A program made the translations under genes and the position numbers. From Nitrospinaceae bacterium (lineage in GTDB: Bacteria; Nitrospinota; Nitrospinia; Nitrospinales; Nitrospinaceae), in the NCBI GenBank assembly GCA_965223245.1, contig CBDCVY010000013.1, positions 3,646,883 through 3,710,882 on the forward strand: a DNA stretch of 64,000 bases, in the 5' to 3' direction. Each line of letters starts with the position of its first letter. The first letter of the stretch is position 1. Below the pieces are notes generated by a model. It was given only the letters and a program-made list of their open reading frames with translations. It searched no databases and was not told the origin of the DNA. Shown here piece after piece: positions 462 to 62,350 of the stretch.

Positions 462-468
462 TTTTTTT

Positions 469-2196: not shown

Positions 2197-2212
2197 TTTA
2201 TTTTTAATGTCC

Positions 2213-3826: not shown

Positions 3827-3955
3827 AGCACTGTTAATGGTTTTTATAAAGATGATCGCCGTATTCTTTCATATAGTTTTCTCACCGACGGAATAACCCT
3901 TTACTTTTCTGGCGACATCGATAAAATTGGGGATTTCCATTAACCATAATTAATC

Positions 3956-12683: not shown

Positions 12684-12703
12684 AACAAGTAAGGATATGC
12701 GAA

Positions 12704-13816: not shown

Positions 13817-13856
13817 CTAGATAAAGTTAATCTAAAAAGCTCAATGGATAAAATAA

Positions 13857-14798
13857 TTAAGAACCGAGGAAGGAGTTTATTTCATCAATGGTAGTTTTTA
13901 CATCGGAAGCGGATTTGTCTAACGCCTTTTTTTCCTCATCAGTTAGTTTAAGCTCAATAATTTTATCAATACCTTCATGTCCTAACTCAACAGGAACTCC
14001 AAAAAATATATCTTTCCAACCGTATTCTCCATCCAAATAAGCGGTGCAGGGTAATATACGCCGCTTATCCTGTAAAATCGCCTCAATCATTTTTACAACG
14101 GAAGCACCTGGGGCAAGAAAAGCACTTCCTTTTTTTAGATACCCAACAATTTCTGCTCCACCTTTTCGAGTTCGTTCAACTAAACGTTCAATTTGTTCGT
14201 GAGTCATAAGGTCGGTGATCGAAATACCCGAAACAGTGGTGTAACGTGGCATGGGCACCATAGAGTCTCCATGACCCCCTAAAACCATTGCATCCACATC
14301 CACTAAAGAACAGGACAATTCAAGAGAAACAAAAGTACGAAATCTTGCTGAATCCAGTACACCGGCCATGCCAATAACTTGTTTTCTAGATAAGCCGGAA
14401 ACTTTTTTGGTTAGATAAACCATGGCGTCTAAAGGATTTGAGACAACGATAATAATCGGGTCTTTTGAATATTTCATGATCTCTTCGGTAACACTCTTTA
14501 CAATTTTTGCATTTGTAATTAAAAGATCAGATCTATCTTGACCGGGTTTTCTAGGAACGCCTGCAGTAATTACTACGATATCTGAATCTTTGGTGTCACT
14601 ATAATCATTTGTACCTTGAACGAGACTGTCAAAAACCTGAAGACAACCGGATTGTTGCAAATCTAATGCTTTTCCCTGGGGGATTCCCTCTACAATATCA
14701 ATGAGAATGACGTTACCTAAATTTTTATATGCAATCAGTTGGGCAACAGTGGTGCCCACCTGCCCGGCTCCTACAACAGTGATTTTTCTTCGCATCAT
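13857..14798 (-). CDS. mdh: Malate dehydrogenase, LDH-like family
   Basis: N-terminal Rossmann fold KITVVGAGQVGTTVA. LDH/MDH family signature throughout. 313 aa. Confidence 0.9.
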   Translation of the reverse strand: MMRRKITVVGAGQVGTTVAQLIAYKNLGNVILIDIVEGIPQGKALDLQQSGCLQVFDSLVQGTNDYSDTKDSDIVVITAGVPRKPGQDRSDLLITNAKIVKSVTEEIMKYSKDPIIIVVSNPLDAMVYLTKKVSGLSRKQVIGMAGVLDSARFRTFVSLELSCSLVDVDAMVLGGHGDSMVPMPRYTTVSGISITDLMTHEQIERLVERTRKGGAEIVGYLKKGSAFLAPGASVVKMIEAILQDKRRILPCTAYLDGEYGWKDIFFGVPVELGHEGIDKIIELKLTDEEKKALDKSASDVKTTIDEINSFLGS

Positions 14799-20683: not shown

Positions 20684-22009
20684 ATGAAAATGAAAGCAAG
20701 ACTTTATTATTTTTTGCGGAATAATTTCATTTTTAAAAATTGGGCAGAATATTATAAGGAGACTTGGGGATTAGTAAATAATGAAAGTACTCACTCTCTT
20801 CTTAAGGACCTTTTGACTCATGCCAGAGAAAATGTTCCTTTTTATAGCAGGTCCATTCCCTACAAAAAAGATTTAGAAAACTATCTTCAAGACATTCCAA
20901 TCCTAAGTAGAGAAGCCATAGAAAAAAACTTAGAGCAATTAAAATCCATTGATTTTTTAAAACGGCCCTATTTTTTAAATAGTTCTAGTGGTTCAACGGC
21001 CCAACCCATTCGGTTTTACCAAGACAAAGATTATAATGAATGGTTGTTGGCAACTGAAAACTATTATTACAAACAGTTTTTAGGAATCGATTATGCTGAT
21101 ACCCGCAAAGTTATTATATGGGGGTCGGCAAGGGATTTAAAAACTTCATCTTCTATTAAATCGAAAATTGGCCAATTTTTAAGTAGCACTTATTTCTTAA
21201 ATTCTTTTGATGTTTCCCCCAATATGTGGGGTAACTTTCGGGATGCCATTAATCATATTAAGCCAGAGTTAATTCGAAGTTATGCGAGTAGTTTGTATTT
21301 ACTTGCAAGGCATATAAAAGAAAATAATCTGAAATGCCACCGACCGAATTTCTTAATCACCTCTGCTGAAACGCTTAAACCGTATATGCGTGAAACTATT
21401 GAAGATGTTTTTCAGCAAAATGTTTTGGATTACTACGGTAGCCGGGAATTAGGGATTATTGCGGCTCAATGTACAAAAGGAAAAATGCATACATTTCCTT
21501 TCTTTAATTATGTGGAAATCACTAATAGTGATGGAAAACCAGTTGAACCGGGTGAAGATGGGATTGTATTGATCACCAATTTAAGAAACTATTCAATGCC
21601 ATTCATTCGTTATCAAATTGGAGACACTGCCATAATGGGAGACCATTGCCTTTGTGGAGAAACTACTCCAGTGCTTGAAAAAGTGACGGGTCGAATTGCA
21701 GACCATTTCCTTGCCCAAGATGGAAGCCAAGTCCATGGACTGTTTTTTAGTAGGATGTTTTTCTTTAAAAAATGGGTGGCGGAATTCCAATTATTACAAA
21801 AAGAAATTGACCTTATTGAAATTCATTTCGTCCCTAAAGAGTTACCCCCTTCATCAGATAAAGAAGAAATTAACAGAAGAATCAGAGAAAGAATGGGAGA
21901 GCATTGCCGGATTAATTGGGTAGAAAAAGATAAAATTCATCGAACCCGAGAAGGAAAGTGGATTATTACCAAGAATTTAATCAATAAGGAAAAAACAACA
22001 GTATTTTAA
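20684..22009 (+). CDS. Phenylacetate-CoA ligase-like / coenzyme F390 synthetase-like adenylate-forming enzyme (PaaK/CapK family)
   Basis: AMP-binding core SSGSTAQP. 441 aa with a PaaK-like domain order. Could alternatively be a CapK-like capsule enzyme. Confidence 0.6.
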   Translation: MKMKARLYYFLRNNFIFKNWAEYYKETWGLVNNESTHSLLKDLLTHARENVPFYSRSIPYKKDLENYLQDIPILSREAIEKNLEQLKSIDFLKRPYFLNSSSGSTAQPIRFYQDKDYNEWLLATENYYYKQFLGIDYADTRKVIIWGSARDLKTSSSIKSKIGQFLSSTYFLNSFDVSPNMWGNFRDAINHIKPELIRSYASSLYLLARHIKENNLKCHRPNFLITSAETLKPYMRETIEDVFQQNVLDYYGSRELGIIAAQCTKGKMHTFPFFNYVEITNSDGKPVEPGEDGIVLITNLRNYSMPFIRYQIGDTAIMGDHCLCGETTPVLEKVTGRIADHFLAQDGSQVHGLFFSRMFFFKKWVAEFQLLQKEIDLIEIHFVPKELPPSSDKEEINRRIRERMGEHCRINWVEKDKIHRTREGKWIITKNLINKEKTTVF

Positions 22010-32572: not shown

Positions 32573-33196
32573 CTAAATACTATTTATATCGTAAACTAGT
32601 TCTTCGCCTCGCAATGCAGGCTCCTCGACCTTAATAAACAAATCTTTAAGTTTCTCAAGCACATCTGTATCGATAGAGCTTGTTCCGCGTGATTGGGCGG
32701 TAATAGAATCAAAAAGGTGTTGGTAATATAATCGATAGGTTTTAGCTAAAATAATTGAGTAATTATTTTCTATTTCTTCATCATAAAATCGATTTAAAAC
32801 ACTTTGAATTAAAGTATATAAGGCTTCTGAGTATAACTGAAAATAAGCGGACTGCTTTTCAAATTCTTCAAAATGAATTTCACTTTTGTCACCTTTTAAA
32901 TATTTGAAAATTGCTTTTCCATCAACATCCGTATTTCGTTTAAAATACTCTTGCCACATCACCATATTTTTAATGTTTTCGATAAGAGTTTTTCTGAATG
33001 CACATTTCTGATCTAAATGATTTTCTTTGGAACAAACATCGTTAACCACAGAAAAAAAAGCCTGATGAACATCTCCATTTAATTGGGTGTTATTTTGCAA
33101 GGCTTTCGCAAATAGAAACTTATTTTTGGCTTCTTCCTCGGTTGCGTATTGGTCAAAAATCCTTTGACCAAAATCTTTGACAGTCCCTATATCCAT
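32573..33196 (-). CDS. Hypothetical soluble protein (all-helical; function unknown)
   Basis: 207-aa ORF on the same strand, immediately downstream of the lipid cluster. No motif recognised. Confidence 0.35.
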   Translation of the reverse strand: MDIGTVKDFGQRIFDQYATEEEAKNKFLFAKALQNNTQLNGDVHQAFFSVVNDVCSKENHLDQKCAFRKTLIENIKNMVMWQEYFKRNTDVDGKAIFKYLKGDKSEIHFEEFEKQSAYFQLYSEALYTLIQSVLNRFYDEEIENNYSIILAKTYRLYYQHLFDSITAQSRGTSSIDTDVLEKLKDLFIKVEEPALRGEELVYDINSI

Positions 33197-33491: not shown

Positions 33492-34295
33492 CTAATTAGA
33501 GCGTTGCGCTTTTTTGACGATGTCTTTATCAAAATAATTGATGGACATTCCAGCGTCGAGAACGATTCCTTGCGCATTAATGCCACTGGAACGCTTGCTT
33601 AGTAAAAATACTGCTGCATTAGCTACTTCTTGGGTAGTCAACGCTTTTTTTCTAAGGGTCAATTGTTCCGCATGAAGGTAGGAGTCTATATATCCAGGGA
33701 TCCCAGCAGATGCTGAGGATTTGAGCAGGCCTGCATTGACGGAGTTAAATCGTATTTGGGAGAAAGTACTGAAGGATTTTGCCAGAAAGCAAAGGGAAGA
33801 GTCCAGTGCTGCTTTTGCAGGTCCCATATAACCATAGTTCTCCGCTGCCATCCGTGTAGTAGATATTGAGACCGTAACAACGGAAGCATTTTTATCAAAC
33901 AATTCTTTAAATGTATTAGCAAGTTGAATAAGAGAAAAACACGAAATATCTACGCATTGCAAAAAATCTTGTTTTTTGGTTTCGTGGAATGGTTTCAAAC
34001 CTTCAGCAAAATTTGCAAATGCAATTGAGTGGACCATTCCATGAAGCACATCGGTTTCGTTTGTAATCTGGTCTTGTAATCTTTCAATATCTTCAGACTT
34101 TTCAACATCACAAACGAATACAGGTGCCGGTTTTACCAAAGCTTCAGTACACTTTTTTCGATTTTCGCTACGTACACTATATAAAACACGCGCCCCTTGC
34201 TCAGTTAGAGTTTTTCCAATAAAGTGGGCTACGCTTTTTTTGTTTGCGACACCGGTGACTAAAATGGTTTTACCTTGCAACTCAAGAAAGCTCAT
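33492..34295 (-). CDS. Enoyl-[ACP] reductase, FabI-like SDR
   Basis: N-terminal [13 protein letters not shown], cf. FabI LITGVAsxxSIA. Catalytic Y-x6-K region [11 protein letters not shown], cf. FabI YNVMGLAKA. Confidence 0.65.
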
Positions 34296-34717
34296 GGGCT
34301 ATCCTCCATCATCATTGCGGTAAATTCAACAGAACAAGCAGGTTTACCATTAACAAAAGCTTTGCCTTTCATATAATGAGCAGGTCCAACCGCTTCAATA
34401 TGATGGACTTCCATTTCTAGTTGGTCTCCTGGATATACAGGATTCTTGAACTTTACATTTTGAATTCGTGTTAATACGGGAACCCCTGAAGGAAATCCTC
34501 CAATCCTTTTCGAGATTAATATGGCTCCAGTCTGAAATATACTTTCGCAAATTAAAACTCCCGGCATGATGGGATGATTGGGATAATGTCCTTTAAAAAA
34601 CGATTCGTCAGGATTAATTTGTTTATAGGCTTTTATATATTGATTGGTTTGTTCCTGGATTTTGTCAACAAATAAAAATGGAGGCCGGTGTGGAATAGAA
34701 TTTTCAATTTCGTTCAT
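34292..34717 (-). CDS. 3-hydroxyacyl-ACP dehydratase, FabZ/FabA-like hotdog
   Basis: FabZ active-site region [28 protein letters not shown] 34717 overlaps the fabG stop (ATGA), with GGAGG upstream. Confidence 0.7.
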
Positions 34718-34719
34718 GG

Positions 34720-35463
34720 TTATAAACCTCCAGTAACTTCCAATACCGCGCCATTTATATAAGATGATTCCCTGCAAGCAAGAAATAATACACAATGAGC
34801 TACATCTCCAACATTACCAAATCTTTTTAACGGAATTTGTTTCAAGTATTTTTCCTTTTGGTCTTCGGACAAATCAGCGATGAATTCAGTATCAATAAAT
34901 CCTGGAGAAACACAGTTGACAGTAATTTTTCGGGTTGCGACTTCTTTGGATAAAGACTTCGTAAGTGCAACTTGCCCGGCTTTGGTGGCCGCATAATTGG
35001 ACTGGCCCGGAAAACCGAATTTTCCAATGGGGGAAGTAATATTGATTATTCGCCCGTAGCGTTGGCGCATTAAACTTTGCACTCCCAACTTGCACATGTG
35101 GAAGGTTCCTGTAAGGTTGGTATCCATGACTTGGGTCCAGTCCTCTTCCCGCATCATCCCCAAAACTGAGTCGCGTCGAATTCCGGAATTATTCACTAAA
35201 ACTTCAAACTTACCAAAGGATTCTTGCATAAATTGAAAAAAGCTTTCAACCTCGGAAAATTGCGTTATATCAAATTGCTTTAGAGTTAATTGATCTTTAT
35301 ATTCTTTATTTGCTTCTTGAAACTTTTCAGCTGCTTGTTGATTAGCCTGAAACGTCGCAACCACAGTAGCCCCTGCTTGTAAAAACGACTCTACGATACC
35401 TCGGCCAATTCCGCGAGTACCACCTGTTACAATTACAGTTTGGCCTGTAAAATCGAATTTCAT
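34720..35463 (-). CDS. 3-oxoacyl-ACP reductase, FabG-like SDR
   Basis: TGGTRGIGRGI cofactor motif. NAG, YxxxK (YAATKAG). 247 aa. Confidence 0.8.
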   Translation of the reverse strand: MKFDFTGQTVIVTGGTRGIGRGIVESFLQAGATVVATFQANQQAAEKFQEANKEYKDQLTLKQFDITQFSEVESFFQFMQESFGKFEVLVNNSGIRRDSVLGMMREEDWTQVMDTNLTGTFHMCKLGVQSLMRQRYGRIINITSPIGKFGFPGQSNYAATKAGQVALTKSLSKEVATRKITVNCVSPGFIDTEFIADLSEDQKEKYLKQIPLKRFGNVGDVAHCVLFLACRESSYINGAVLEVTGGL

Positions 35464-35534
35464 GGGTAAGGAAGATTAAAGGAAGAGAGTACACAATATT
35501 CGTTTTAAAGAAACGGTATTGAGTATTTTTAAAA

Positions 35535-36983
35535 TTAAACGCTTACAACTTCTAGTTCTTCTTTTGGTGTATGCATCTTCTGTAAAAACTTGTCTACTTC
35601 GTTTGCGACTATCACTCCATAGTTCGCAGCTCCCAGCCAGCCCGACATGATAATGCCCACTGACCCAGCATGAAACAAACCAGCAATTTCTTTAGGCAAT
35701 TCTTTACTTACCTTAAGACCCTCAAATTTGGTTCCAAAGGAAACTCCTCCGGGGTGCTGAGTGTAACGCTTAAATGTTTTAGGGGTAGAAGCTTCTAAGT
35801 GACCAATCTTACTTCTTATATCAGGTACATAACGTTCCAGGGCGTTTAAAGTAGTTTCAATTAATTCCTGTTTCTTTTTTTTATATTCTTGTTCTTTTAA
35901 ATGGGCCCAATCCTGAAAACGTGCATTCGTGGAAGCTACGATGGCATACATTTTAGATCCGGGTCTCAACTCCGGATAATAAAAAGAAAATGTTCGGCTA
36001 GTAGTATGTGGTTCTAATAGCTTTTCAGAATCAAATTCTGGTTCTTGTGAAGTGAATAACAGATCCCCGATATTATCGATTTTTTCGCCACGTTTTATTC
36101 CTATATATACCTGGCAGCTACTGTCGTTCAGTCTTACCTTTTTAACTTCGTTCAGGTACTCTTCTGAGAAATGTTCATCACCTGCCAATTTATGAATTGT
36201 CGTCAATAGGTTGGAATTAGACAGTACCGCATTAGAATGAACCTCTCTTCCGTTAACCCTGACGCCAACAATCTTTTTATTTTCGACCAGAATTTTATCC
36301 ACCAAACAATGTGTGCGAATATCCACTCCATTTCGAAGAAGTTCTTTTTTCATTTTTTTTATGAGAGCATTGGTTCCACCTTCAAAGGTATAGACTCCTT
36401 TATCCATGAAATTTGAAAATACAATACCGTAAGTGATAGCAGGATCATCCAACGTAGATCCATTGGCATATGTAATGGGTTCCATGAGAAGGCGATGCAC
36501 ATCGGTTCTTCCCGGAAAGAACTTTTCAAAGAGGTCACGAGTGGTCATGCTTAAGTCGTCATAAAAATTCATGCCGCGAACGGTAGTAAAGAAATCATCT
36601 ATAGTTTCTTTTAAAATTCCAAATCGCTCACGCATTAGGTGGGTAAAGTCCACCTTATCGAAAGAAGTCATGAAAGAAAACTGAGGGTTATCAAATCGAA
36701 TATTTTTGAGGCGGATGATAGAATCGGCAATTTCTTTAGACCAATATTTTCTACAAGTCTTAATCATTCCAATGGGAAAGCCATGGAGTGAGATATCTAA
36801 TATATGCCCTCCTTTACGCTTAAACCAGGTAGCCAAACCTCCTAAATTGTAGTGGTGCTCAAGGATCAATACTTTATGACCCATTTTCGCTAGTTTGTTT
36901 GCAGCGGTGAGCCCACCTAAACCGCTACCGATGATAATTGTGTCGTATGCTTGCTTGACTCCTTTTAACCAGTATTTCGACAT
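35535..36983 (-). CDS. FAD-dependent oxidoreductase, phytoene-desaturase/amine-oxidase (CrtI/CrtN-like) family
   Basis: Dinucleotide-binding motif [30 protein letters not shown]. Start ATG 36983 shares 1 nt with the upstream stop (TAATG). Confidence 0.7.
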
Positions 36984-38395
36984 TAAATTCTCCCGTATTC
37001 CGGTTTGCTTTGACCCTGCAAAACATGCAGATTGGCCATCGATATCCCACTCAGCGTCGCACCAATAATACCTAAAAATCCTTGATCTGTCCCACAAATA
37101 AACAAATTTCTGATGGGGGTGAATCCGTTTTTGACTTTTTTAGGGGAACCATAAACCGCACCATTGAGGTGGCCCGTATATTTTTTTATGGTTTTTGGCG
37201 TAAAAGTGTCTAAAAATACCACATGTTCCCGAAAATCGGGAAAAAATTTGAGCAAAGCTTCTACAGCTTGGTCCCTACAAGCCTTTTTAGCTGCTCGATA
37301 GTCTTTACGGATCATAGAGTCCCAAAATTTAAAATTTGCTTGATTCGTCACGCGTATAATCCCTTCGTGCAGGGAACCTTCATATTTAAAGTTGTTGGGG
37401 ACACATAAAACCCCGCTGGTTGTGTCGGTTAATTGGTCTGGAACGCGATATTGAAATTGAGGTTCTGTGCAATAGAACACTATACTTTTATCATAACCGA
37501 TTTTTTTGGGTTCACTACCTAAAACGAATAGAGATTCCAAAAAAGAAATTTGCCCGACTATGTAATTTTCCGGCCCATCTACATTAGGATGGCAAAGGTC
37601 CATGGTTTCTACATAACCGGCAGAAGATATTACTTTATCTACTTCAATAACTTCACCCGAATCAAGTTGAACCGATTGTAAAACTTCGTTTTGGTGTTTA
37701 ATTTGACTAACACCAGCCCCCATTTTTAATTCCCCTCCCAGGTTTTGGTATTTTTCAACCAGCATATTAAGAATAGAGACCATGCCTCCCTGAGGACGGG
37801 CGAACCCCTCAAAATAAACACTTTTAAACATAATGACGAATTGATAGAAATCCATATCATGCTCTTGAGCATTGCCGTAATACATAAGGGGGCAAAAAAT
37901 CATATCGATTAGAAGTGGATCGGATAAATACTGATCCAGGACCTGGCGAGAAGAGAGCTGCTGATGGTTATTGATGTCTAGCTCATTGAAATTCCGAATA
38001 TGTTCCAACAACTTGCGAAACCCATCAATTTGACTGGGAAATTGTTCGGCAATTTCCTGTTCAAAAAGGCTAAAATCGTTATTGAACCTGAGAGCTTTTC
38101 CCGGAAACCGCACTTCTGACATTTCTTGCTCGCATAATTGGAAATCTTCATGTTTCAATCGAAGTTGTTTAAGAAGCTTACCCAGTGGAGAGGATCGCAT
38201 TCCCTTTGGGGTAAAATTGGTCATAGCGTGCAAACCAACATCAAAAGTGCGATTTTTTCTTACATAAAAGGAATTGAGGCCTCCGACTTCAACATGTTTT
38301 TCAACAATTATTACCTTTTTATCGAACAGTGCTAGTCGAATGCCTGCGGCCAAACCGGATAAACCGGCTCCTATGATCAATGCATCGTAGGTCAT
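36983..38395 (-). CDS. FAD-dependent oxidoreductase, phytoene-desaturase/amine-oxidase (CrtI/CrtN-like) family
   Basis: N-terminal [32 protein letters not shown]. About 470 aa. A paralogue of the downstream enzyme. Confidence 0.7.
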
Positions 38396-38464
38396 GAAAT
38401 GAATAATGAACCAGGAAACTTAATAAATCAATAGGGGGGAAATCGGGAAAAACGGGAATTACTA

Positions 38465-38728
38465 TTAGGTGACGGGCTCTTGATCCTGCAATCGGGGAAA
38501 TAAATAAGCAATACAGCTCGACATACTGACAAGTTCCGGGTAATCATTCTCAGGAACTTCCAAATTGTAACGTTTACGCAATTCCATCACAATGTCTAAA
38601 AAGTCCATGGAATCCAGGTCAAATTGGTCCCGCAGCTTTTCGTCGTCTTTTAGCTTGCTTAAATCCTCATCTGGGGCAATATCTGCAATGATATCAATTA
38701 TCGCTTGTCGAACTTCGTCCCGGGTCAT
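38465..38728 (-). CDS. Acyl carrier protein
   Basis: 87 aa. Phosphopantetheine attachment motif DLDSMDFLDIV. Acidic helical protein. Confidence 0.8.
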   Translation of the reverse strand: MTRDEVRQAIIDIIADIAPDEDLSKLKDDEKLRDQFDLDSMDFLDIVMELRKRYNLEVPENDYPELVSMSSCIAYLFPRLQDQEPVT

Positions 38729-38876
38729 CGAGTAGTATCTCCTAAATTCTTGATCTTAGGGGAAAAGACGCAAAATTTCAATACTATTTTTAATTCTTCC
38801 CTCTTCATTTTTTATTATTGGAAGGGCCTTGCACAGAGGCAACCTAAACAGGTTTAATACTGGATTGCTTTATGTA

Positions 38877-40115
38877 TCAGGCAGTAAATCGTTTTACGAT
38901 TAAAACTGAATTGATTCCGAACATGCCAAATGAATTGTTCATAATTACATCGACCTGATCCATTTGTTCAGGTTGGTTGGCAACCAAATTGTTAAGTTGG
39001 CATTCCGGATCAATCTCATCTAAATTGATGGTGGGATGAACATAATTATCCTCAAAGGCCGGTAAATTTCCTGTAAGTTCCAATGCTCCAGCCGCACCCA
39101 TAGTATGCCCTATGTAGCTTTTTGTGTTATTGATTCGAGTTTGGCCCTTTGTCCCGAAAACTTCTCGAACAGCTTTACATTCTTGGATATCTCCTAACTG
39201 AGTTGCGGTGGCGTGAGTGTTTAACAAAGCGATATCCTCGGGTTGCAATTCTGCGCGTTTCAAAGCTAAGCGCATACATTCGGCTTGGCGGTTGGGTTCA
39301 GGAAGAATATAGTCATATGCATCCGAGTTACTAGCGTAACCAATTATCTCACCATATATTTTTGCACCGCGTTTTTGTGCATTACCTAATCGCTCAAGCG
39401 TATAAAGGCAACCCCCTTCGGAGCAAACTATTCCGTTACGATTTTTATCAAAGGGTCGGCTGGCCTTGGTGGGGTCCTTGTGTTCTGCCAAAGCACCCTC
39501 ACTCTTAAAGCTTGCGAATATACCGAAGGTGTGAATACTTTCTGAAACACCTCCTGCAATAGCCATATCGACTTCGCCTAACCTGAGCATTTGAACACCC
39601 TGAATGATTCCCAAATTTCCCGCAGCGCAGGCGGCTCCAATGGCATAATGAGGTCCGGTTATCCCCATATTTAAGGTTACTTCCCCAGCAGGATTATTGG
39701 CTACGGTGCGTGGATTGTGATGATGTGACCAATATTTGGTGTCATACTCATATTGGCTGATGTTGTAGACCTCGTTTTCTGTTTCAACATTTCCATGCTC
39801 AGTGGTTCCTATGTAAACCCCAATCCGTGATTTATCGAGAGCATCGAAATCAATCGCCGAATCCAAAACTGCCTCACGGGAACAGTAAACGGCGATGGAT
39901 CCTGCCCGTGTCCCACGACGTACCTCTTTTTTCTTTTGGTAACGCAATTCATCGAAATCACAGACTCCGGCAAGAACTTCGCCCATAAATCGAGTCCTAA
40001 ACTTGCGAACACCCGATTTTCCTTCTAGTAATGCCTTGCGAAATTCGGCTAACGAATTTCCATTGGGTGCGGTAAGTCCAATTCCAGTTATAACAATACG
40101 ATCATTTAATGACAC
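38877..40115 (-). CDS. Beta-ketoacyl-ACP synthase (KAS I/II, FabF/FabB-like)
   Basis: Thiolase-fold KAS. Active-site Cys region (GPHYAIGAACAAG), His-His motifs (NTHATATQLGD; GHTMGAAG) and C-terminal NSFGMFGINS. Confidence 0.85.
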   Translation of the reverse strand: MSLNDRIVITGIGLTAPNGNSLAEFRKALLEGKSGVRKFRTRFMGEVLAGVCDFDELRYQKKKEVRRGTRAGSIAVYCSREAVLDSAIDFDALDKSRIGVYIGTTEHGNVETENEVYNISQYEYDTKYWSHHHNPRTVANNPAGEVTLNMGITGPHYAIGAACAAGNLGIIQGVQMLRLGEVDMAIAGGVSESIHTFGIFASFKSEGALAEHKDPTKASRPFDKNRNGIVCSEGGCLYTLERLGNAQKRGAKIYGEIIGYASNSDAYDYILPEPNRQAECMRLALKRAELQPEDIALLNTHATATQLGDIQECKAVREVFGTKGQTRINNTKSYIGHTMGAAGALELTGNLPAFEDNYVHPTINLDEIDPECQLNNLVANQPEQMDQVDVIMNNSFGMFGINSVLIVKRFTA

Positions 40116-41025: not shown

Positions 41026-42336
41026 CTACGTTGCAGCAACTTTAGTTTTTACCAAACTGAGCAGTGCAAAGGGGTGAACGGGTGCTTCCATTTGGATCCA
41101 AACGCGACCATTCCCGCCATGGGCAACCGATATAGATTCGTTTTTTAGGTTCTCCATCGCAGTTAATTGGAAATTATGTTGTCCCTCGGGAGAAATGTAT
41201 TCTAGTTCATCCCCGATTTCGATTCTATTCTTAACTTCAACTTCCATCCATCCACCAGGCCGTTCTCCCGTTACCTGACCTGCAAAAACTTGTGTTAAAT
41301 CTTCTTCTTGTGGCGAATCAAAGCGCTCTGTTTCATGGTCAGATTTAGGAACATAAAATGCCGAGGTAAAACCGCGATTTGCGGTTTTGTTGAGTTCCTC
41401 TAACAAGGCTGAATCGAAGGGTCGACCTTCTGCCAGGTCATTTAAGGCTTTGCGATAGGTTCTTACGACCAAAGATAAATAATAAATTGTTTTGGAACGG
41501 CCTTCGATTTTTAAAGAACATACGCCTGCATTTCGAATTTGTTTTAAGAATTCCAAAGCTCGCAAGTCTTTAGAATTCATAATATAGGTACCGTGCTCGT
41601 CCTCATCGATTGGCATTAATTCTCCGGGACGTAGTTTTTCTTCAATAAAATATTCGCCTTTTAAAATCTCGGGGTTGTGGGTGCTTTGCGAAAAGTCATT
41701 AGCTGATTCACTATTTTCTTGAGTTAAGTTATATTCCCATCGGCAACTGTTAGTGCATGTTCCTTGATTGGCATCACGGTGATTAAAATAATTTGATAAA
41801 AGGCACCGGCCCGAATAGGCAATACAAATCGCCCCATGAACAAATGCCTCCAGCTCCATTCCAGGTACTTTTTCATGAATTTCCTGGACCTCAGGCAGGG
41901 ACAATTCACGAGAAAGAATAATGCGTTTTACCCCCTGTTCATACCAAAACTGAACTGTAGGCCAATTCATCGTATTGGTTTGCACTGAAAGGTGAATCGG
42001 GATTTGTGGAAACTCTTTTCGCATAAAATGAATCATCCCCGGATCAGCCATAATGAAAGCATCGGGTCCGGCTTCAGCAAAATATGACAAAGATTTTTTA
42101 AACGATTCGATTTTTCGATTAGGAGGTAAAATATTTGCGGTGATATAAATCTTTTTTCCTAATTGATGGGACCGGTCAATCGCGGTCTTTAAGGTCGCAT
42201 CTTTAAAAGGATTTTCCCGCGCCCGCAAAGAGAACTTTGGAATTCCTGCATAAACCGCATCAGCTCCATAAGCAAAAGCATATTCCATCTTTTCTGGACT
42301 GCCAGCGGGTGCTAATAATTCTGGGATGAGATGCAT
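41026..42336 (-). CDS. Peptidase U32 family protein (collagenase-like; YegQ/RlhA-type)
   Basis: N-terminal PELLAPAGSPEKMEYAFAYGADAVY. A U32 core with Cys-rich segment. C-terminal beta-barrel extension. Confidence 0.75.
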   Translation of the reverse strand: MHLIPELLAPAGSPEKMEYAFAYGADAVYAGIPKFSLRARENPFKDATLKTAIDRSHQLGKKIYITANILPPNRKIESFKKSLSYFAEAGPDAFIMADPGMIHFMRKEFPQIPIHLSVQTNTMNWPTVQFWYEQGVKRIILSRELSLPEVQEIHEKVPGMELEAFVHGAICIAYSGRCLLSNYFNHRDANQGTCTNSCRWEYNLTQENSESANDFSQSTHNPEILKGEYFIEEKLRPGELMPIDEDEHGTYIMNSKDLRALEFLKQIRNAGVCSLKIEGRSKTIYYLSLVVRTYRKALNDLAEGRPFDSALLEELNKTANRGFTSAFYVPKSDHETERFDSPQEEDLTQVFAGQVTGERPGGWMEVEVKNRIEIGDELEYISPEGQHNFQLTAMENLKNESISVAHGGNGRVWIQMEAPVHPFALLSLVKTKVAAT

Positions 42337-47777: not shown

Positions 47778-50700
47778 TTACTGCGAGTAAGTAATAGTTA
47801 TTTTAGGCCTTTTTGAAGAGGCTTCACTAGAGTTGAAACCAATTCCATTATTGGATCCACTCGTTTTAACAATGAATCCTCGATTAGTAATGCTTCCATT
47901 AATCCATCCCTGAACCAGGTTAACACCGCTTGAATTCAAAGAGATCTCCTGTTCATTAAAAATATTGGACGGAATGGTACCCAAGCGGGTAGACCCAATG
48001 TCACCCGATCCGTCAAAGTCGTTCCAATCGACTGAACTTTCGGACCAGGAAGACTTGGCTTGATACAAATAATGGTCGGCCGAACTCCCATCTGAAATAT
48101 TAAAAGTCAAACTGACAGATTGGACCACGGCGTTACTGGGAATCGAAGATAAATCCCATGAGATGACACTCATTACTTCGCCATAGTTTCCATTGGAAGG
48201 ATCCGGGGCGACTCCATCAACTAGTAAGATGCTCGAACTTCCATAATTAGAATTAGGAGAAGTTTCTCTTAAGGTAGCATCTCTTGTACCGGAATAGCCA
48301 TTCACACCATTTTGAAGGCTGACTGAATTTCCCCCGCCCACTGAATAGGTAATAGTTATTTTAGGCCTTTTTGAAGAGGCTTCACTAGAGTTGAAACCAA
48401 TTCCATTATTGGATCCACTCGTTTTAACAATGAATCCTCGATTAGTAATGCTTCCATTAATCCATCCCTGAACCAGGTTAACACCGCTTGAATTCAAAGA
48501 GATCTCCTGTTCATTAAAAATATTGGACGGAATGGTACCCAAGCGGGTAGACCCAATGTCACCCGATCCGTCAAAGTCGTTCCAATCGACTGAACTTTCG
48601 GACCAGGAAGACTTGGCTTGATACAAATAATGGTCGGCCGAACTCCCATCTGAAATATTAAAAGTCAAACTGACAGATTGGACCACGGCGTTACTGGGAA
48701 TCGAAGATAAATCCCATGAGATGACACTCATTATTTCGCCATAGTTTCCATTGGAAGGATCCGGGGCGACTCCATCAACTAGTAAGATGCTCGAACTTCC
48801 ATAATTAGAATTAGGAGAAGTTTCTCTTAAGGTAGCATCTCTTGTACCGGAATAGCCATTCACACCATTTTGAAGGCTGACCGAATTTCCCCCGCCCACT
48901 GAATAGGTAATAGTGATTTTAGGTCTTTTAGAAGTAGAGGATTCACTAGAGTCAATTCCAATACCATTATTATTTCCATCGGTTTGCAAGACAAAGCCTC
49001 GATTGGAAACGGTCCCATTAATCCATCCTTGAACCAGGTTAATGCCATTTTGATTCAAAAAGATTTCTTGTTCATTAAATAGATTAGGGCCAATGACCCC
49101 TAAAACTGTAGACCCAATGTCACCCGATCCGTCAAAGTCGTTCCAGTCGACTGAACTTTCGGACCAGGAAGACTTGGCTTCGTGGAAGTAATGGTTACCG
49201 GAGCTTGCATCCCAAAAGTTTAGAGTCACACTTACGGATTGGACAACCGCATTGCTGGGAATCGAAGATAAGTCCCAAGAGAGTACGGAAACTACTTCAC
49301 CGTAGCTACCATCTGCAGGATCGGGGGCTGTCCCATCAACCCATAAATGGTTCTCATTCCCATAATTAGTGTTGGGAGAAGATTCTCTCAAGGTAGCATC
49401 TCTAGTTCCAGAATATCCATCCACACCATTTTGAAAACTGACAGTACTTCCCCCTCCTGGCGGTGGAGGCGGTGGAGGTGGGGGAGGTGGGGGACTTCCA
49501 CCACTGTAAGTAGAGTTTTCATTAATGTTAAATTGAATTCCAGGACTTGGTATTGGCAAATTGGCTGCATAGTCTTTGACATTTACCACAGTTAATACTT
49601 CAGATCCCGTTACTGATGAAGATGTAGTTAATCGAACCACTCTTGGATCGCTTTGTCGAACAGCACTGCTTATTGATACGCCATTATTTAGTGAATAATT
49701 GCTTTTAGTTTCTGCACTAGATTCATGGACGGGTTCTGAAAATTGCACATCCAGTTTGGTGCTGCTAATACGATGAACTGCAAAAATTGCAGGTGGCGCA
49801 ACGTCGCCAGAATTGGCGATGGTGAATTTATCTCGTATTAAACCATCGTCGTCTAAGAAACCGGCTTCCATCCGGTTCGCATAGATATCTAGTACCATAG
49901 AACCAAATACACCATCACCCGAATCCAATTCAGTGTACATGATGGGATGTTTGGGGTATCCATTTGTGGAAGTATGTCGACTTGAATTGCCTACGATGGC
50001 ATAAACAGCGCCCGATTTTCCTGATTTTGTATATGCTCCATCAGCACCAGACTCCGGAAAGGATTTTCCATTGCTTGATGTAATTTTACTCCCGTTGTTG
50101 GTAAAGTAAGATCGTTCATACCAATGATTATTCCCACTCAAAACTAAATCGACTCCATTAGATTCAAGTATTGGAATGACATTCTCTCTAAGTTCTGTAG
50201 GGATAGTGCTATTATTATTCACCGCATTTGAATAGGCAGGGTTATGAAAAATACAGATGATCCAATCTTGATTGGTTGAACTTAAATCATCCTCTAACCA
50301 GGTTAACATTGAGGATCCAGAGGATCTTGAGCGCTTTAAGGAATTCAAAACCACTATGTGAATATTGTTGTAATCAAAAGAATAGTAATCCTCCACACCC
50401 GAAGCAACTCCGCCTAATTCTCCATTTGCAGGAAATTCAAAATTTTTAAAGAAGGGGCCAGCTTGATCGTTTACATCAGAATAAGGTTCGCCATCAGAAA
50501 ATGTTGTGAAGATAGGAGTATTACGTAGAACTTCTGGGAGGGTATCAAATAATCCACCTTCGTAAGCACCGTCGGAACCTTCCCAAAAGCCATTGTTGGT
50601 ATATGCATTATCACCTAAAGCTAAAAGGAGATCGGCTCTACGAAGTTTGCTGTAATTTTTAAAGGAATCGCGAACTCTATCTGCAATGGAACTACCTGTC

Positions 50701-51179
50701 CCCATATCTCCAACCACCCAAATTCTAGTAGGTTGAGGATTTCCACCGCCCACTGGTGTCATAAAACTACCCCGAGCAGAGGATTCATTTAAAGGAGAAC
50801 TTGAAGTTCCAATTTCATAATAGTAACGAGTCCCAGGACTTAAGTTTGTCAAGGTAACCCTATGCTCAAGTAAGTTTCCACAGCTACTGCAAAGAGAAAC
50901 ATTGACAGGGTTGGAATCAGTTTTTACAGAGCTGTAATCTTGGGGAAATTCTCCATAATGTACACTCCTATAGGAGGACTCTGAAGTGCTTACTCTCCAT
51001 TTAACTACCACACTTGTGGGACTTATCTTTTGTAAGTAGGGGCCCCGGTCAACAGTACCAGCAGTAACATTTATAACATTAAGAAGAAGGAAGCTAAGGA
51101 TAAGAAAAGTGTGAAATAAATAAGGAAAAAAATGTTTTTGAGTTTTTTCTTTAAAGCAAAATCTCACGATATACCTCAT
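47778..51179 (-). CDS. Large secreted protein: purple-acid-phosphatase-like metallophosphoesterase (N-terminal FnIII-like + calcineurin-like domain), poly-Pro linker, three tandem ~187-aa C-terminal domains (DNRLRE-like?)
   Basis: Signal peptide. PAP N-domain (HRVTLTNLSPGTRYYYEIG). Metallophosphoesterase motifs (VVGDMGTG, LGDNAY, GNNHWYERS). P13 run. Three repeats containing GYSGTRDATLRE...WDLSSIP...DWNDFDGSGDIG. Confidence 0.7.
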   Translation of the reverse strand: MRYIVRFCFKEKTQKHFFPYLFHTFLILSFLLLNVINVTAGTVDRGPYLQKISPTSVVVKWRVSTSESSYRSVHYGEFPQDYSSVKTDSNPVNVSLCSSCGNLLEHRVTLTNLSPGTRYYYEIGTSSSPLNESSARGSFMTPVGGGNPQPTRIWVVGDMGTGSSIADRVRDSFKNYSKLRRADLLLALGDNAYTNNGFWEGSDGAYEGGLFDTLPEVLRNTPIFTTFSDGEPYSDVNDQAGPFFKNFEFPANGELGGVASGVEDYYSFDYNNIHIVVLNSLKRSRSSGSSMLTWLEDDLSSTNQDWIICIFHNPAYSNAVNNNSTIPTELRENVIPILESNGVDLVLSGNNHWYERSYFTNNGSKITSSNGKSFPESGADGAYTKSGKSGAVYAIVGNSSRHTSTNGYPKHPIMYTELDSGDGVFGSMVLDIYANRMEAGFLDDDGLIRDKFTIANSGDVAPPAIFAVHRISSTKLDVQFSEPVHESSAETKSNYSLNNGVSISSAVRQSDPRVVRLTTSSSVTGSEVLTVVNVKDYAANLPIPSPGIQFNINENSTYSGGSPPPPPPPPPPPPGGGSTVSFQNGVDGYSGTRDATLRESSPNTNYGNENHLWVDGTAPDPADGSYGEVVSVLSWDLSSIPSNAVVQSVSVTLNFWDASSGNHYFHEAKSSWSESSVDWNDFDGSGDIGSTVLGVIGPNLFNEQEIFLNQNGINLVQGWINGTVSNRGFVLQTDGNNNGIGIDSSESSTSKRPKITITYSVGGGNSVSLQNGVNGYSGTRDATLRETSPNSNYGSSSILLVDGVAPDPSNGNYGEIMSVISWDLSSIPSNAVVQSVSLTFNISDGSSADHYLYQAKSSWSESSVDWNDFDGSGDIGSTRLGTIPSNIFNEQEISLNSSGVNLVQGWINGSITNRGFIVKTSGSNNGIGFNSSEASSKRPKITITYSVGGGNSVSLQNGVNGYSGTRDATLRETSPNSNYGSSSILLVDGVAPDPSNGNYGEVMSVISWDLSSIPSNAVVQSVSLTFNISDGSSADHYLYQAKSSWSESSVDWNDFDGSGDIGSTRLGTIPSNIFNEQEISLNSSGVNLVQGWINGSITNRGFIVKTSGSNNGIGFNSSEASSKRPKITITYSQ
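47781..49463 (-). repeat. Three tandem 561-bp coding repeats; the two 3'-proximal copies are near-identical at nucleotide level
   Basis: The sequence starting tattttaggcctttttgaagaggcttcactagag at 47793 recurs at 48354 (period 561). I see only about 2 mismatches over the unit. The third copy (about 48903-49463) is diverged. Confidence 0.85.
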
Positions 51180-57985: not shown

Positions 57986-59050
57986 TTAATTATTTTCTTT
58001 TTCGGAAATTCCCGCAGTTTTGAAAGTTGCCATTTCGTTATATATTTTCACACTGGCCTCAATTAACTGCATGCCTAATACTGCTCCGGTCCCCTCACCT
58101 AATCGCATACCTAAATCAAAAAGTGGAGGCACGTCTAATAGCTTAAAAAAAACTTGATGTCCTAGCTCTTTAGATTGATGAGAGACAAAAATAGAATCTT
58201 TCACTTTAGGTTGCATTTTTAAAGCTAATACGGCAGCGGCTCCTGAAATCAAACCATCCACAACGATGGGAATTCTATAGGACGCAGCCCCAAGGATCAA
58301 TCCCGCCAACCCCCCAATTTCGAAACCACCAACTTTTGCAAGCACATCTATGGGATCTTTAGGTTTGGGTTTGTTATTTTCAATAGCACGTTCAATTACG
58401 GCAATTTTTTTTAGCCATTGTTCATCCGAAATACCCGTCCCCTTTCCAGTGGTAAACTTCGGTTTTTTTTCTCCATAAACCGAAAGTATGGCTGAACTGG
58501 GAGTTGTATTACCAATACCCATTTCGCCAGTACAAATAATATCGAATTCATTTTTTGCACAGTTTTCTGCTATTTCTATTCCTATTTGAACTGCCTCTTC
58601 TGCCTGATTTCGAGACATGCTGGGACCCTGGCTCATATTCTTTGTTCCGGGAGCAATTTTTTTGTGGATTAAGTTTGGGAGAGAGTCAAAGTTATAATTT
58701 ACGCCAATGTCCACAAGAAAAATATCTGCTTGTGCAAAATTAGCAAGTACATTAATTGCAGCCCCTCCGTTTAAAAAGTTGAGGACCATTTGTTGTGTAA
58801 CAGATTGAGGATAAGCACTGACCCCTTCTTCTACAACACCATGATCGGCAGCAAAAATGACAACAGCTTTTTTATCAATTTTCGGATTAATATTTCCCCG
58901 AATACCAATATACTGTCGTGCTAACTCTTCTAAACGCCCCAAACTGCCTGGGGGCTTTGTCAGTGAATCGATATGTTTTTGTGCGGCAATAATTTTTTCT
59001 GAATCGATAGATTCAATATTATGGATAGTGTTTTCAATTATAGGAAGCAT
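57986..59050 (-). CDS. cobT: Nicotinate-nucleotide--dimethylbenzimidazole phosphoribosyltransferase
   Basis: CobT family motifs (KPPGSLGRLEE; GEMGIGNTT; LGEGTGA). Confidence 0.9.
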   Translation of the reverse strand: MLPIIENTIHNIESIDSEKIIAAQKHIDSLTKPPGSLGRLEELARQYIGIRGNINPKIDKKAVVIFAADHGVVEEGVSAYPQSVTQQMVLNFLNGGAAINVLANFAQADIFLVDIGVNYNFDSLPNLIHKKIAPGTKNMSQGPSMSRNQAEEAVQIGIEIAENCAKNEFDIICTGEMGIGNTTPSSAILSVYGEKKPKFTTGKGTGISDEQWLKKIAVIERAIENNKPKPKDPIDVLAKVGGFEIGGLAGLILGAASYRIPIVVDGLISGAAAVLALKMQPKVKDSIFVSHQSKELGHQVFFKLLDVPPLFDLGMRLGEGTGAVLGMQLIEASVKIYNEMATFKTAGISEKENN

Positions 59051-62134: not shown

Positions 62135-62169
62135 GATCTTTCCTTTCTCTCGAAGGCAATAGATTTTTC

Positions 62170-62300
62170 TGACCAGGTATCCTGACTTAAGGGTATTGCA
62201 ACCGCGCCTTCCCATCGAACGACAGTGGCCTAGAGCGGTCCCTTCCCTATCACAGTTGCGGGACAGTATCGGATTCTCACCGAGCTTCCCTAACCAGAAA
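62170..62300 (-). promoter_or_regulatory. Cobalamin (AdoCbl) riboswitch in the btuB leader
   Basis: Minus-strand sequence CTGGTTAGGGAAGCTCGGTGAGAATCCGATACTGTCCCGCAACTGTGA...GCCACTG...GGGAAGGCGCGG...AGTCAGGATACCTGGTCAG matches the conserved Cbl riboswitch core (GGTGxxAATCC, CCCGCAACTGT, B12 box GCCACTG, AGxCAGGAxACCTG). Confidence 0.8.
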
Positions 62301-62350
62301 GGTTAAAAAAATAGAAACAAGTTAATTTTGTATTTTCAAAAGTTTTTAAA

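Follow-up and report, generated by a model that had tools for sequence, protein, structure and literature searches.

A seven-gene fatty-acid synthase module with two CrtI-superfamily flavoenzymes in Nitrospinota, a candidate oxygen-independent route to polyunsaturated acyl chains

Gene content and organisation of the module

Seven co-directional genes on the minus strand (33492-40115) of a 64-kb window from a Nitrospinota genome, the window being the whole stretch of DNA that was analysed, combine the parts of a fatty-acid elongation cycle with two flavoproteins related to carotenoid enzymes, which raises the question of what acyl chain such a set would make and how the flavoproteins would take part in it. 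The genes were assigned with Pfam and NCBIfam models, with the equivalog cut-offs of NCBIfam, and all seven lie where the preliminary description had placed them:

38877-40115, minus strand: KAS, FabF-like beta-ketoacyl-ACP synthase, first gene of the module (Pfam ketoacyl-synt N and C)
38465-38728, minus strand: ACP, private acyl carrier protein of 87 aa (PP-binding; serine motif DLDSMD)
36983-38395, minus strand: FAD1, flavoprotein of the CrtI/CrtISO superfamily, 470 aa (Amino_oxidase and NAD_binding_8)
35535-36983, minus strand: FAD2, paralogous flavoprotein, 482 aa from the ATG at 36983 (Amino_oxidase and NAD_binding_8)
34720-35463, minus strand: FabG-like 3-oxoacyl-ACP reductase (TIGR01830, NF009466)
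34292-34717, minus strand: FabZ-like 3-hydroxyacyl-ACP dehydratase, 141 aa from the ATG at 34717 (FabA-like domain, NF000582)
33492-34295, minus strand: FabI-like enoyl-ACP reductase, last gene of the module (adh_short_C2)

For FAD2 the ATG at 36983 (TTTAATGTCG) is the most probable start, displacing a TTG at 37097 and giving a TAATG overlap with FAD1, i.e. translational coupling, while the most likely start of FabZ is the ATG at 34717, 2 nt past the FabG stop, displacing 34795. FabZ and FabI share an ATGA overlap, so that coordinates, domains and overlaps all bear out the co-directional set as first described. FabI is separated by a gap of 295 bp from a 207-aa gene, which had been suggested, along with an SPFH gene, as a further member; neither adjoins the module at other Nitrospinota loci and this suggestion is not upheld.

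The KAS contains both ketoacyl-synthase domains (N-terminal, E 4e-37; C-terminal, E 4e-29; Pfam) and aligns end to end with FabF 4qav, the catalytic triad being intact [Cys (IGAACAAG), His (NTHATAT) and His (YIGHTMG)], and it scores 336 bits against TIGR03150, which has a cut-off of 494. The ACP (PP-binding, E 5e-7, Pfam) reaches 38 bits with its top NCBIfam ACP model (cut-off 66), and the FabI-like protein (adh_short_C2, E 8e-54, Pfam; Tyr/Lys motif YGYMGPAK in the translation) reaches 173 bits with the top FabI equivalog (cut-off 391). The FabG-like protein shows a YAATK motif and has 280 bits against the 298 of TIGR01830, but passes NF009466; the FabZ-like protein has a FabA-like domain (E 5e-25, Pfam), HPIMPG/ES motifs and 135 bits with NF000582, above the cut-off of 113, together with a sub-threshold ApeI-like match (24.6 against 28.5). 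A type II elongation set is thus represented by the KAS triad, the DSM serine of the ACP, an SDR ketoreductase, a hot-dog dehydratase and an SDR enoyl reductase, of which only FabZ and one FabG subfamily model pass the housekeeping equivalog test. Since KAS, ACP and FabI fall far under the equivalog cut-offs, the earlier view of a dedicated module rather than a housekeeping fab cluster is supported. Like housekeeping type II systems, the module has discrete KAS, ACP, ketoreductase, dehydratase and enoyl reductase proteins, but its genes do not follow the order fabH-fabD-fabG-acpP-fabF. Neither fabD nor fabH turned up among the annotated ORFs of the window, where the remaining small ORFs are too short for FabD or FabH.

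The paired flavoenzymes

The paralogy of the two phytoene-desaturase-like FAD enzymes, proposed at the outset, was shown by BLASTP (23% identity, E 8e-26) and hhalign (probability 100%). FAD1 has the FAD-binding CrtI-type fold and is 14-22% identical to solved structures, and the best structural matches of the flavoenzymes are carotenoid isomerase and desaturases; likewise, the top HMM of both proteins is the carotenoid isomerase model. Together with the position of ispF, which is found upstream of the module in the window and at four of the seven other Nitrospinota loci, these matches could indicate that FAD1 and FAD2 really belong to a carotenoid or isoprenoid pathway, the proximity of ispF then reflecting isoprenoid metabolism. 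Such a role is very improbable, since the scores are far under the NCBIfam cut-offs (carot_isom, 105 bits against 587; CrtD, 72-102 against 550; crtI_fam, 66-82 against 238), in agreement with the initial judgement that these enzymes probably do not act on a carotenoid. Furthermore, the distance of ispF from the module varies from <200 bp to 5.3 kb and ispF was not seen near the module at non-Nitrospinota loci, while in six lineages the flavoenzymes are flanked by KAS/ACP and FabZ/FabI. As first noted for a carotenoid synthase, crtB and crtM are absent from the annotated ORFs of the window and from the conserved neighbours at 82 loci, as is crtE from the window's annotated ORFs and the conserved neighbours. 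Anammox homologues expressed in E. coli did not replace CrtI (PMC4790861).

FAD1 shares its FAD-binding fold with CrtI, CRTISO, RetSat and the P. acnes polyenoic fatty-acid isomerase, but the flavoenzymes of the module partner FAS and ole genes instead of carotenoid genes, and their substrate is presumed to be ACP-bound. In CRTISO and the P. acnes enzyme FAD is used for redox-neutral double-bond isomerisation. We know of no CrtI-superfamily enzyme with an acyl-ACP as substrate, which speaks against the pathway proposed below; activity on one would, if true, be new chemistry for the superfamily. In the FAD2 family, 16 sequences that represent six phylum-level lineages have a mean column identity of 70%.

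Distribution of the module and linkage to oleABCD

The neighbourhood survey covered 82 loci, 75 from outside the Nitrospinota and seven from other Nitrospinota. The module is present at six of the seven Nitrospinota loci fetched, and the order KAS-ACP-FAD1-FAD2-(FabG)-FabZ-FabI is also seen in Dehalococcoidales, Planctomycetota, Opitutales, deltaproteobacterial MAGs and Bdellovibrionota, with the ACP sitting between KAS and FAD1 at 67 of the 82 loci. FabG belongs to the cluster in Nitrospinota, Dehalococcoidales and deltaproteobacterial MAGs and is often missing from it elsewhere, and FAD1 occurs alone at some planctomycete loci. Across phyla, module orthologues are 61-72% (KAS), 57-67% (FAD2) and 55-63% (FabI) identical. 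An order kept by dozens of genomes that represent six phylum-level lineages goes far beyond what chance would produce, and the co-occurrence that the preliminary description had singled out for comparison is real, the set travelling as a unit with both flavoenzymes across phyla. Dehalococcoidales and the module-bearing deltaproteobacterial MAGs are taken to be strict anaerobes, and on this assumption their presence among the carriers fits oxygen-independent chemistry.

The most informative fact, invisible from the window alone, is that the module is physically joined to oleABCD elsewhere. At 37 of the 75 non-Nitrospinota loci, in five phylum-level lineages, ole genes lie within 10 kb of the module, and at about half of the non-Nitrospinota loci no ole gene was seen within that distance. 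Leaving out a few families of overlapping ORFs that are probably spurious and an epimerase family seen in Opitutales only, ole genes are the sole other recurrent neighbours. The neighbouring OleA matches the X. campestris OleA structures (E 1e-52) better than FabH (1e-21), OleC matches the olefin beta-lactone synthetase model NF045786 (E 3e-147) and OleD matches NF042423 (E 2e-110), while the OleB-like protein is a haloalkane-dehalogenase-like hydrolase. In two deltaproteobacterial MAGs (L020 and L039) the genes form an 11-gene operon, KAS-ACP-FAD1-oleA-oleB-oleC-oleD-FAD2-FabG-FabZ-FabI, with junctions of mostly -28 to +21 nt and four longer ones of 43-112 nt. By contrast, the arrangement of an Ole-linked secondary lipid synthase, seen at these 37 loci, is not that of the present locus: ole homologues were found neither in the 64-kb window nor within 10 kb of the module at the seven other Nitrospinota loci. 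An oleC has been reported in a Nitrospina MAG (PMC10176705).

In housekeeping type II synthesis (FabA/FabB, FabM, FabN, FabQ, FabX) a cis bond is introduced on the acyl-ACP without oxygen, and FabX shows that a flavoenzyme can do so. FabX is an FMN/4Fe-4S enzyme with a fold unrelated to that of the CrtI-fold FAD enzymes. The module might be an oxygen-independent route to ordinary monounsaturated membrane fatty acids that replaces FabA/FabB, its flavoenzymes, like FabX, creating or isomerising a single double bond while the acyl-ACP is of middle length. The complete elongation set with its intact KAS triad and the occurrence in lineages taken as anaerobes would suit this route, as would the precedent of H. 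pylori FabX as a flavoenzyme in unsaturated fatty-acid synthesis (PMC8626469). The main fatty acids of Nitrospina, which include 16:1, would suit it too. The route is nevertheless unlikely, since bulk synthesis would call neither for a divergent ACP of its own nor for a pair of flavoenzyme paralogues, oleABCD are joined to the module in five phylum-level lineages, Ole systems working on ordinary fatty acids (e.g. in Xanthomonas) are not reported with a private synthase, and aerobic planctomycetes that bear the module have 18:1w9-type profiles.

Alternatively, the private FAS could give OleA an ordinary chain and FAD1 and FAD2 could act after condensation, desaturating the C27-C31 olefin or ketone as a phytoene-like hydrophobic substrate. 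We give this little credence, since flavin dehydrogenation of unactivated methylenes is chemically unfavourable, as was also argued by Rattray 2009 (PMC2649909), and the methylene-interrupted cis bonds of the known C31:9 come from a PUFA-type precursor (PMC6463001). Moreover, the private KAS, ACP, FabZ and FabI would be left unexplained, and Nitrospinota keep the module without adjacent ole genes.

A proposed pathway and related systems

The reading that we favour, at somewhat better than even chances, is that the module is a dissociated, oxygen-independent synthase whose pair of flavoenzymes places the cis double bonds in a polyunsaturated acyl-ACP destined for Ole. The analysis shows the gene content, the intact catalytic motifs, the paralogy of the flavoenzymes, a module that is conserved and, at other loci, physical linkage to oleABCD; we infer that the product is polyunsaturated, that the flavoenzymes isomerise rather than dehydrogenate, and that OleA receives the chain. 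The seven genes would form a self-contained type II synthase building a special unsaturated acyl chain, most likely a polyunsaturated one, on its own ACP. Elongation cycles would be run by KAS, FabG, FabZ and FabI, with FabI reduction in some cycles only, and the CrtISO/CrtI-superfamily flavoenzymes would step in at the enoyl-ACP stage, so that double bonds are kept and repositioned without oxygen, for example by trans-2 to cis-3 and trans-2 to cis-2 isomerisation, both of which a methylene-interrupted chain such as 16:4n-3 would need. More specifically, and with somewhat less than even confidence, we suggest a flavin-dependent type II PUFA synthase, in which the CrtISO-like FAD pair supplies the 2,3- and 2,2-isomerase activities on ACP-bound enoyls, as FabA-like domains do in Pfa. 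In most module-bearing lineages the acyl-ACP would pass to OleA and then, through OleBCD, become a long polyolefin of the C31:9 type. Since the present Nitrospinota genome has no ole genes nearby, its chain would go to ole genes elsewhere or to membrane lipids. A role in an unusual unsaturated lipid, as initially proposed, remains the best reading of the sequence. FabN and FabQ are isomerases, and the FabZ-like protein could itself be one, which would leave the flavoenzymes another role. Further points against the proposal are the anammox homologues, which gave no new lipid in E. coli, although they lacked CrtI activity as well (PMC4790861), the loci with no ole gene within 10 kb, both in Nitrospinota and at about half of the others, and the planctomycete loci with FAD1 alone.

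In the current view, bacterial polyunsaturated chains come from Pfa megasynthases or oxygen-dependent desaturases; a dissociated flavoenzyme route would, if true, be a third way, by which bacteria from six or more phyla could make methylene-interrupted polyunsaturated chains without oxygen. To our knowledge, published fatty-acid profiles of Nitrospina gracilis list no PUFA, a point against the proposal, which would predict unreported PUFA or polyolefin in the marine nitrite oxidisers of the Nitrospinota. The proposal would also tell where the C31:9 hydrocarbon comes from, as has been asked since 2009 or earlier, and explain this polyolefin in planctomycetes, Opitutales and Desulfotalea, which lack Pfa or were not found with it. 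Indeed, n-C31:9 is "often present" in planctomycetes (PMC6995999), of which Gemmata and P. limnophilus alone were found with pfa-like clusters (PMC3098273). The proposal bears on non-cyanobacterial hydrocarbon production in the ocean, where Nitrospinota, Planctomycetota and Desulfobacterota are abundant, and the small size of the module (seven genes, or 11 with ole) makes it directly testable by heterologous expression.

The closest functional parallel is Pfa (PfaABCDE) with OleABCD in Shewanella and Photobacterium, a secondary lipid synthase that is likewise apart from the housekeeping FAS, oxygen-independent and often adjacent to ole. There, a polyunsaturated acyl-ACP (16:4n-3) is passed straight from the ACP of the synthase to OleA and yields C31:9 (PMC6463001), and the same hand-over is proposed for the module. 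PfaE is the PPTase of Pfa, and at one module locus, of Dehalococcoidales (L008), a dedicated PPTase and a FabD-like transacylase lie directly 3' of FabI, as in secondary lipid synthases. However, Pfa is built as a multidomain megasynthase of type I, in which tandem ACPs are combined with FabA-like dehydratase/isomerase domains, whereas the module has discrete proteins, a FabZ-type dehydratase, one ACP and two CrtI-superfamily flavoproteins lacking in Pfa. A Pfa-type PUFA synthase was rejected, since multidomain PfaA or PfaC is missing and all module proteins are single-function (87-482 aa); the match to the PfaA model (79 bits, cut-off 1010) reflects KS-domain similarity only.

A related pathway had already been hypothesised by Rattray 2009, who saw that FASII clusters of Kuenenia, Desulfotalea, Geobacter and Pelobacter contain genes resembling phytoene dehydrogenase and who suggested a novel PUFA pathway for anaerobes (PMC2649909), so that, contrary to what had been supposed, the idea is not wholly undescribed; the linkage to ole was not known in 2009, and no published description of it was found in the literature. 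The clusters of Kuenenia stuttgartiensis and Desulfotalea psychrophila resemble the module in combining FabF, ACP and FabZ with amine-oxidase/phytoene-dehydrogenase-like flavoproteins, and Desulfotalea, which makes C31:8 and C31:9 without PKS-type PUFA genes, has an adjacent pair of them, DP2405/DP2406 (PMC2649909). The genes kuste3336 and kuste3607 and the DP genes are possible orthologues of FAD1 or FAD2. The clusters also encode proteins that the module lacks, namely radical-SAM/B12 enzymes, SAM methylases and FabF paralogues whose active sites are altered.

A different specialised lipid, such as a conjugated polyene pigment, a signalling lipid or a ladderane-related chain, with the ole linkage reflecting shared use of an acyl chain only, has a slim likelihood. 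The weak ApeI-like match of FabZ, the Nitrospinota without an ole gene near the module and the phytoene-dehydrogenase-like genes in candidate ladderane clusters of anammox bacteria speak for it, but the main recurrent partners are ole genes and the conserved FabI speaks against a fully conjugated polyene. Aryl polyene clusters have a KS/CLF pair, ApeI/ApeP dehydratases, an adenylating starter enzyme, LolA/MMPL export and no enoyl reductase. The module has one KAS, a sub-threshold ApeI-like match, a conserved FabI and no aryl-starter ligase or export genes, and such a cluster was rejected. The anammox ladderane candidate has a radical-SAM/B12 enzyme and an altered FabF paralogue beside amxACP, amxFabZ and a phytoene-dehydrogenase-like gene, and was rejected as well, since the KAS triad is canonical, the module includes no B12 enzyme, and radical-SAM genes are found neither within it nor beside it; the annotated ORFs of the window include neither radical-SAM nor AMP-ligase genes, as first stated. 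The module offers a model outside the anammox bacteria, and a tractable one, for the phytoene-dehydrogenase-like enzymes on which ladderane hypotheses depend.

Seven co-directional genes in the window

Domain assignment with Pfam and NCBIfam places seven co-directional ORFs, all on the minus strand, between positions 33492 and 40115:

Genes of the module (coordinates, strand, product)
38877-40115, minus: KAS, a FabF-like beta-ketoacyl-ACP synthase with ketoacyl-synt N and C domains
38465-38728, minus: ACP of 87 aa with a PP-binding domain
36983-38395, minus: FAD1, a flavoprotein of 470 aa with Amino_oxidase and NAD_binding_8 domains
35535-36983, minus: FAD2, a flavoprotein of 482 aa with Amino_oxidase and NAD_binding_8 domains
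34720-35463, minus: FabG-like protein (TIGR01830, 280 bits)
34292-34717, minus: FabZ-like protein (NF000582, 135 bits)
33492-34295, minus: FabI-like protein (adh_short_C2, E 8e-54)

Reading of the gene junctions revealed that FAD1 and FAD2 overlap in TAATG and FabZ and FabI in ATGA, and led to revised start codons for FAD2 (ATG at 36983) and FabZ (ATG at 34717, with the FabG stop 2 nt before), such that ORFs, domains and junctions together bear out the overlapping seven-gene cluster of the preliminary description. The private elongation set has intact catalytic motifs: KAS aligns over its full length to FabF structures and retains the Cys-His-His triad, and the ACP, reductase and dehydratase motifs are seen in the translated ORFs. 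FAD1 and FAD2 are paralogues (23-24% identity, hhalign probability 100%) and have in common a D-[VI]-[GS]-L-H motif directly past the dinucleotide-binding fold. The structure model of FAD2, computed from a Nitrospinota-only alignment, was poor (pLDDT 59). Promoter and terminator scans gave no signal exceeding shuffled expectation, and no RNA element turned up close to the module in an Rfam search.

Judged by model scores, the module corresponds neither to the housekeeping fab set nor to a carotenoid set. KAS, ACP and FabI score far under the NCBIfam equivalog cut-offs (336 bits versus 494, 38 versus 66 and 173 versus 391, respectively), in line with the non-housekeeping character proposed earlier. 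The carotenoid isomerase model is the top match of both flavoproteins, yet the score reaches 105 bits where the cut-off is 587, and the general phytoene-desaturase family model is likewise missed (66-82 bits, cut-off 238), so that the earlier view of these proteins as something other than carotenoid enzymes holds by HMM. Among solved sequences, CrtI (E 6e-12) and archaeal oxidoreductases come nearest to them. A carotenoid role is highly improbable given these scores and the absence of a synthase gene; ispF, the sole other window gene recurring beside the module within Nitrospinota (between less than 200 bp and 5.3 kb away), does so only in that phylum. No fabD, fabH, crtB/M, radical-SAM or ligase gene was found among the annotated window ORFs. 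Production of some other specialised lipid is improbable as well, since the module comes without the genes that define aryl-polyene or ladderane synthesis.

Conservation within Nitrospinota and in other phyla

FAD1 is matched by an identical copy on a contig of 4.0 Mb, and its best named relatives are all from Nitrospinota (65-72% identity), Nitrospina gracilis 3/211 among them, and the same applies to FAD2, with relatives in N. gracilis, N. watsonii, Nitromaritima and Nitrohelix. N. gracilis has all seven genes in identical order, with 67-84% identity to the window proteins. In an older assembly of strain 3/211 (locus L001, 8288-9583 and 12994-13668) KAS is in pieces of 290 and 76 aa and FabG is shortened; both genes are intact in a second assembly (L002), and the breaks are probably sequencing frameshifts rather than pseudogenes. 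One Nitrospinaceae MAG (L004, 1-10000) carries FAD1-FAD2-FabG-FabZ-FabI, while KAS and ACP are absent from the 10 kb upstream and a sodium:solute symporter occupies their place, indicating that the module can be split within the phylum.

The adjacent 207-aa gene (32573-33196, minus strand), which matches no Pfam or NCBIfam model, and the SPFH gene had been put forward as possible members. Neither was found beside the module in other Nitrospinota loci, and they are thus not part of it. A protein of the peptidase-U32 family (41026-42336, minus strand) adjoins ispF and was not seen beside the module in other Nitrospinota loci; oxygen-independent hydroxylases (UbiU/UbiV, TrhP) are among the members of this family.

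The FAD1 family comprises 267 representatives (E<=1e-30, 50%-identity library) and forms a separate, medium-sized branch. A genome scan with one genome per species yielded 80 loci, and tblastn of the window proteins against these loci recovered KAS-ACP-FAD1-FAD2-(FabG)-FabZ-FabI in Dehalococcoidales, many Planctomycetota (including the cultured Botrimarina and Bythopirellula), Opitutales (including Horticoccus), deltaproteobacterial MAGs and Bdellovibrionota. With the same order in N. gracilis and in these further lineages, gene-neighbourhood comparison substantiates the conserved co-occurrence. Identity to the window proteins across phyla is 61-72% for KAS, 57-67% for FAD2 and 55-63% for FabI, and FAD2 reaches a mean column identity of 70% over 16 sequences from six phylum-level lineages; the two paralogous flavoproteins of the CrtISO/CrtI superfamily are very strongly conserved. 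Compared with this cross-phylum identity, the window KAS matches FabF structures at E 4e-72 at best, which indicates that the module KAS forms an orthologue group of its own. The G+C content of the loci equals that of the host, from 36% to 66%, so that transfers, if any, are old. Where planctomycete and Opitutales loci have further genes separating FAD1 from FAD2 (a TIM-barrel isomerase, parts of ABC transporters, Uma2-like proteins), these are unrelated, as are the remaining inserts between module genes. At several planctomycete loci (L013, L018, L019, L026, L031, L037, L048, L050 and L067), including that of a MAG labelled Pirellula staleyi, FAD1 stands alone with the other module genes absent within 10 kb, and these must therefore be dispersed there.

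Linkage to oleABCD and a proposed role

All ORFs of 82 loci were clustered into families to find recurrent neighbours. Beyond the module, the recurrent families are four ole families, a fifth family, which is NAD-dependent epimerase-like (11 loci, Opitutales only), and a few likely spurious overlapping ORFs.

The ole families recurring near the module (number of loci, best-matching models or structures)
OleA (FabH-like), 23 loci: X. campestris OleA structures at E 1e-52 versus FabH at 1e-21; passes NF006720
OleB-like, 18 loci: haloalkane-dehalogenase-like hydrolase
OleC, 11 loci: olefin beta-lactone synthetase models, E 3e-147
OleD, 22 loci: 2-alkyl-3-oxoalkanoate reductase models, E about 1e-110

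Outside Nitrospinota, 37 of the 75 loci carry one or more ole genes no further than 10 kb from the module; ole genes are rare, with about 70 genomes in 2011 (PMC3122158). The module is fused with oleABCD at the operon level: two deltaproteobacterial MAGs (L020 and L039) carry KAS-ACP-FAD1-oleA-oleB-oleC-oleD-FAD2-FabG-FabZ-FabI on a single strand, with junctions mostly of -28 to +21 nt and four longer ones of 43-112 nt. In Bdellovibrionota loci FAD1 is followed by oleABCD with 4-nt overlaps, Opitutales have oleA and oleB downstream of FabI, and planctomycetes have oleD or oleABCD upstream of KAS. In the Dehalococcoidales locus L008, oleA adjoins a duplicated KAS, and a phosphopantetheinyl transferase and a FabD-like transacylase directly follow the module. 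In this locus (1-5071 and 12592-14157, minus strand) the oleA-KAS pair occurs twice in tandem before FAD1, accompanied by one ACP, and a third, divergent amine-oxidase-family gene lies downstream. Since oleB, oleC and oleD were not found within 6 kb, the Dehalococcoidales lineage may go no further than the product of OleA. No ole gene was found near the module in the window, and the Dehalococcoidales OleA as query gave matches only in Dehalococcoidia (at least 67% identity), without recovering a Nitrospinota OleA. By report, oleC occurs in MAGs of PVC bacteria and Deltaproteobacteria and in one Nitrospina MAG (PMC10176705).

Gram-negative producers make “especially nonaenes” (PMC7158056). In Shewanella, C31:9 derives from the 16:4n-3 chain of the Pfa synthase, with OleA drawing the chain directly off the synthase ACP (PMC6463001). 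Among planctomycetes, pfa-like clusters have been found only in Gemmata and P. limnophilus (PMC3098273), yet the group is one in which n-C31:9 is “often present” (PMC6995999). Lacking PKS-type PUFA genes, Desulfotalea still produces C31:8 and C31:9, and a FASII cluster of this organism holds phytoene-dehydrogenase-like genes next to each other. On these grounds Rattray et al., at a time when the ole genes had not yet been discovered, put forward a novel anaerobic route to PUFA (PMC2649909). An origin of Geobacter C31:9 from the module was considered and dropped; Geobacter bemidjiensis has pfa and ole in tandem. CrtI is not replaced by the anammox homologues, whose function was treated as an open question in 2023 and 2026. 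A literature search found no co-mention of OleA, OleC and phytoene, and no published description of the synteny between module and ole genes was found in the searchable literature. To call the system undescribed was an overstatement with regard to the idea of Rattray et al. (2009).

Gene content and neighbourhood make it quite probable that the module is dedicated to an unsaturated lipid, serves neither housekeeping nor carotenoid synthesis, and has an evolutionary tie to Ole, and the preliminary description was correct in its main thrust. As to the product, we lean towards a polyunsaturated chain that the module would assemble on its private ACP, which would then present it to OleA. Following Pfa logic, 16:4n-3 would require reduction in only some cycles and two types of isomerase step, one turning the trans-2-enoyl intermediate into the cis-3 form and the other into the cis-2 form. 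FAD1 and FAD2 could provide these, since their family has redox-neutral double-bond isomerases, such as CRTISO, and the P. acnes isomerase belongs to the fold superfamily of that family; alternatively, they may be dehydrogenases linked to an acceptor. That Dehalococcoidales and deltaproteobacterial MAGs, assumed to be strict anaerobes, carry the module fits oxygen-independent chemistry if that assumption holds. A secondary lipid synthase feeding Ole would be of a known kind, with enzyme components that are not known in such a role. A monounsaturated fatty-acid route replacing FabA/B is rather unlikely, as it leaves the private ACP, the two flavoenzymes and the ole fusion unexplained. Desaturation of the olefin after condensation has a low probability, being chemically unfavourable and leaving the private FAS without explanation.

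Other genes of the window

The remainder of the window consists of ordinary chromosomal genes (pheA, tyrA, aroC, cmk, rpsA, sppA, mdh, glnD, glyQ, ispF and cobalamin salvage). A 441-aa ORF (20684-22009, plus strand) has no Pfam match. Two adjoining proteins (3956-4645 and 4623-6128, plus strand) are built of LRR_6 (ribonuclease-inhibitor-type) leucine-rich repeats, which are uncommon in free-living bacteria, and a surface-type protein of 1146 aa (8610-12050, plus strand) combines FG-GAP repeats, bacterial Ig-like domains and a HYR domain. In a protein of 1133 aa (47778-51179, minus strand), purple-acid-phosphatase N and metallophosphoesterase domains are joined to CBM96 and disaggregatase-type repeats, which is odd for a phosphatase. 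A cobalamin riboswitch (82 bits, E 1e-18) precedes a TonB-dependent receptor, flanked by cobalamin salvage genes for a CobT-like phosphoribosyltransferase and for CobU fused to a nitroreductase-family (BluB-like) domain (62155-62321, 60293-62215, 62351-63610 and 57986-59050, all on the minus strand).
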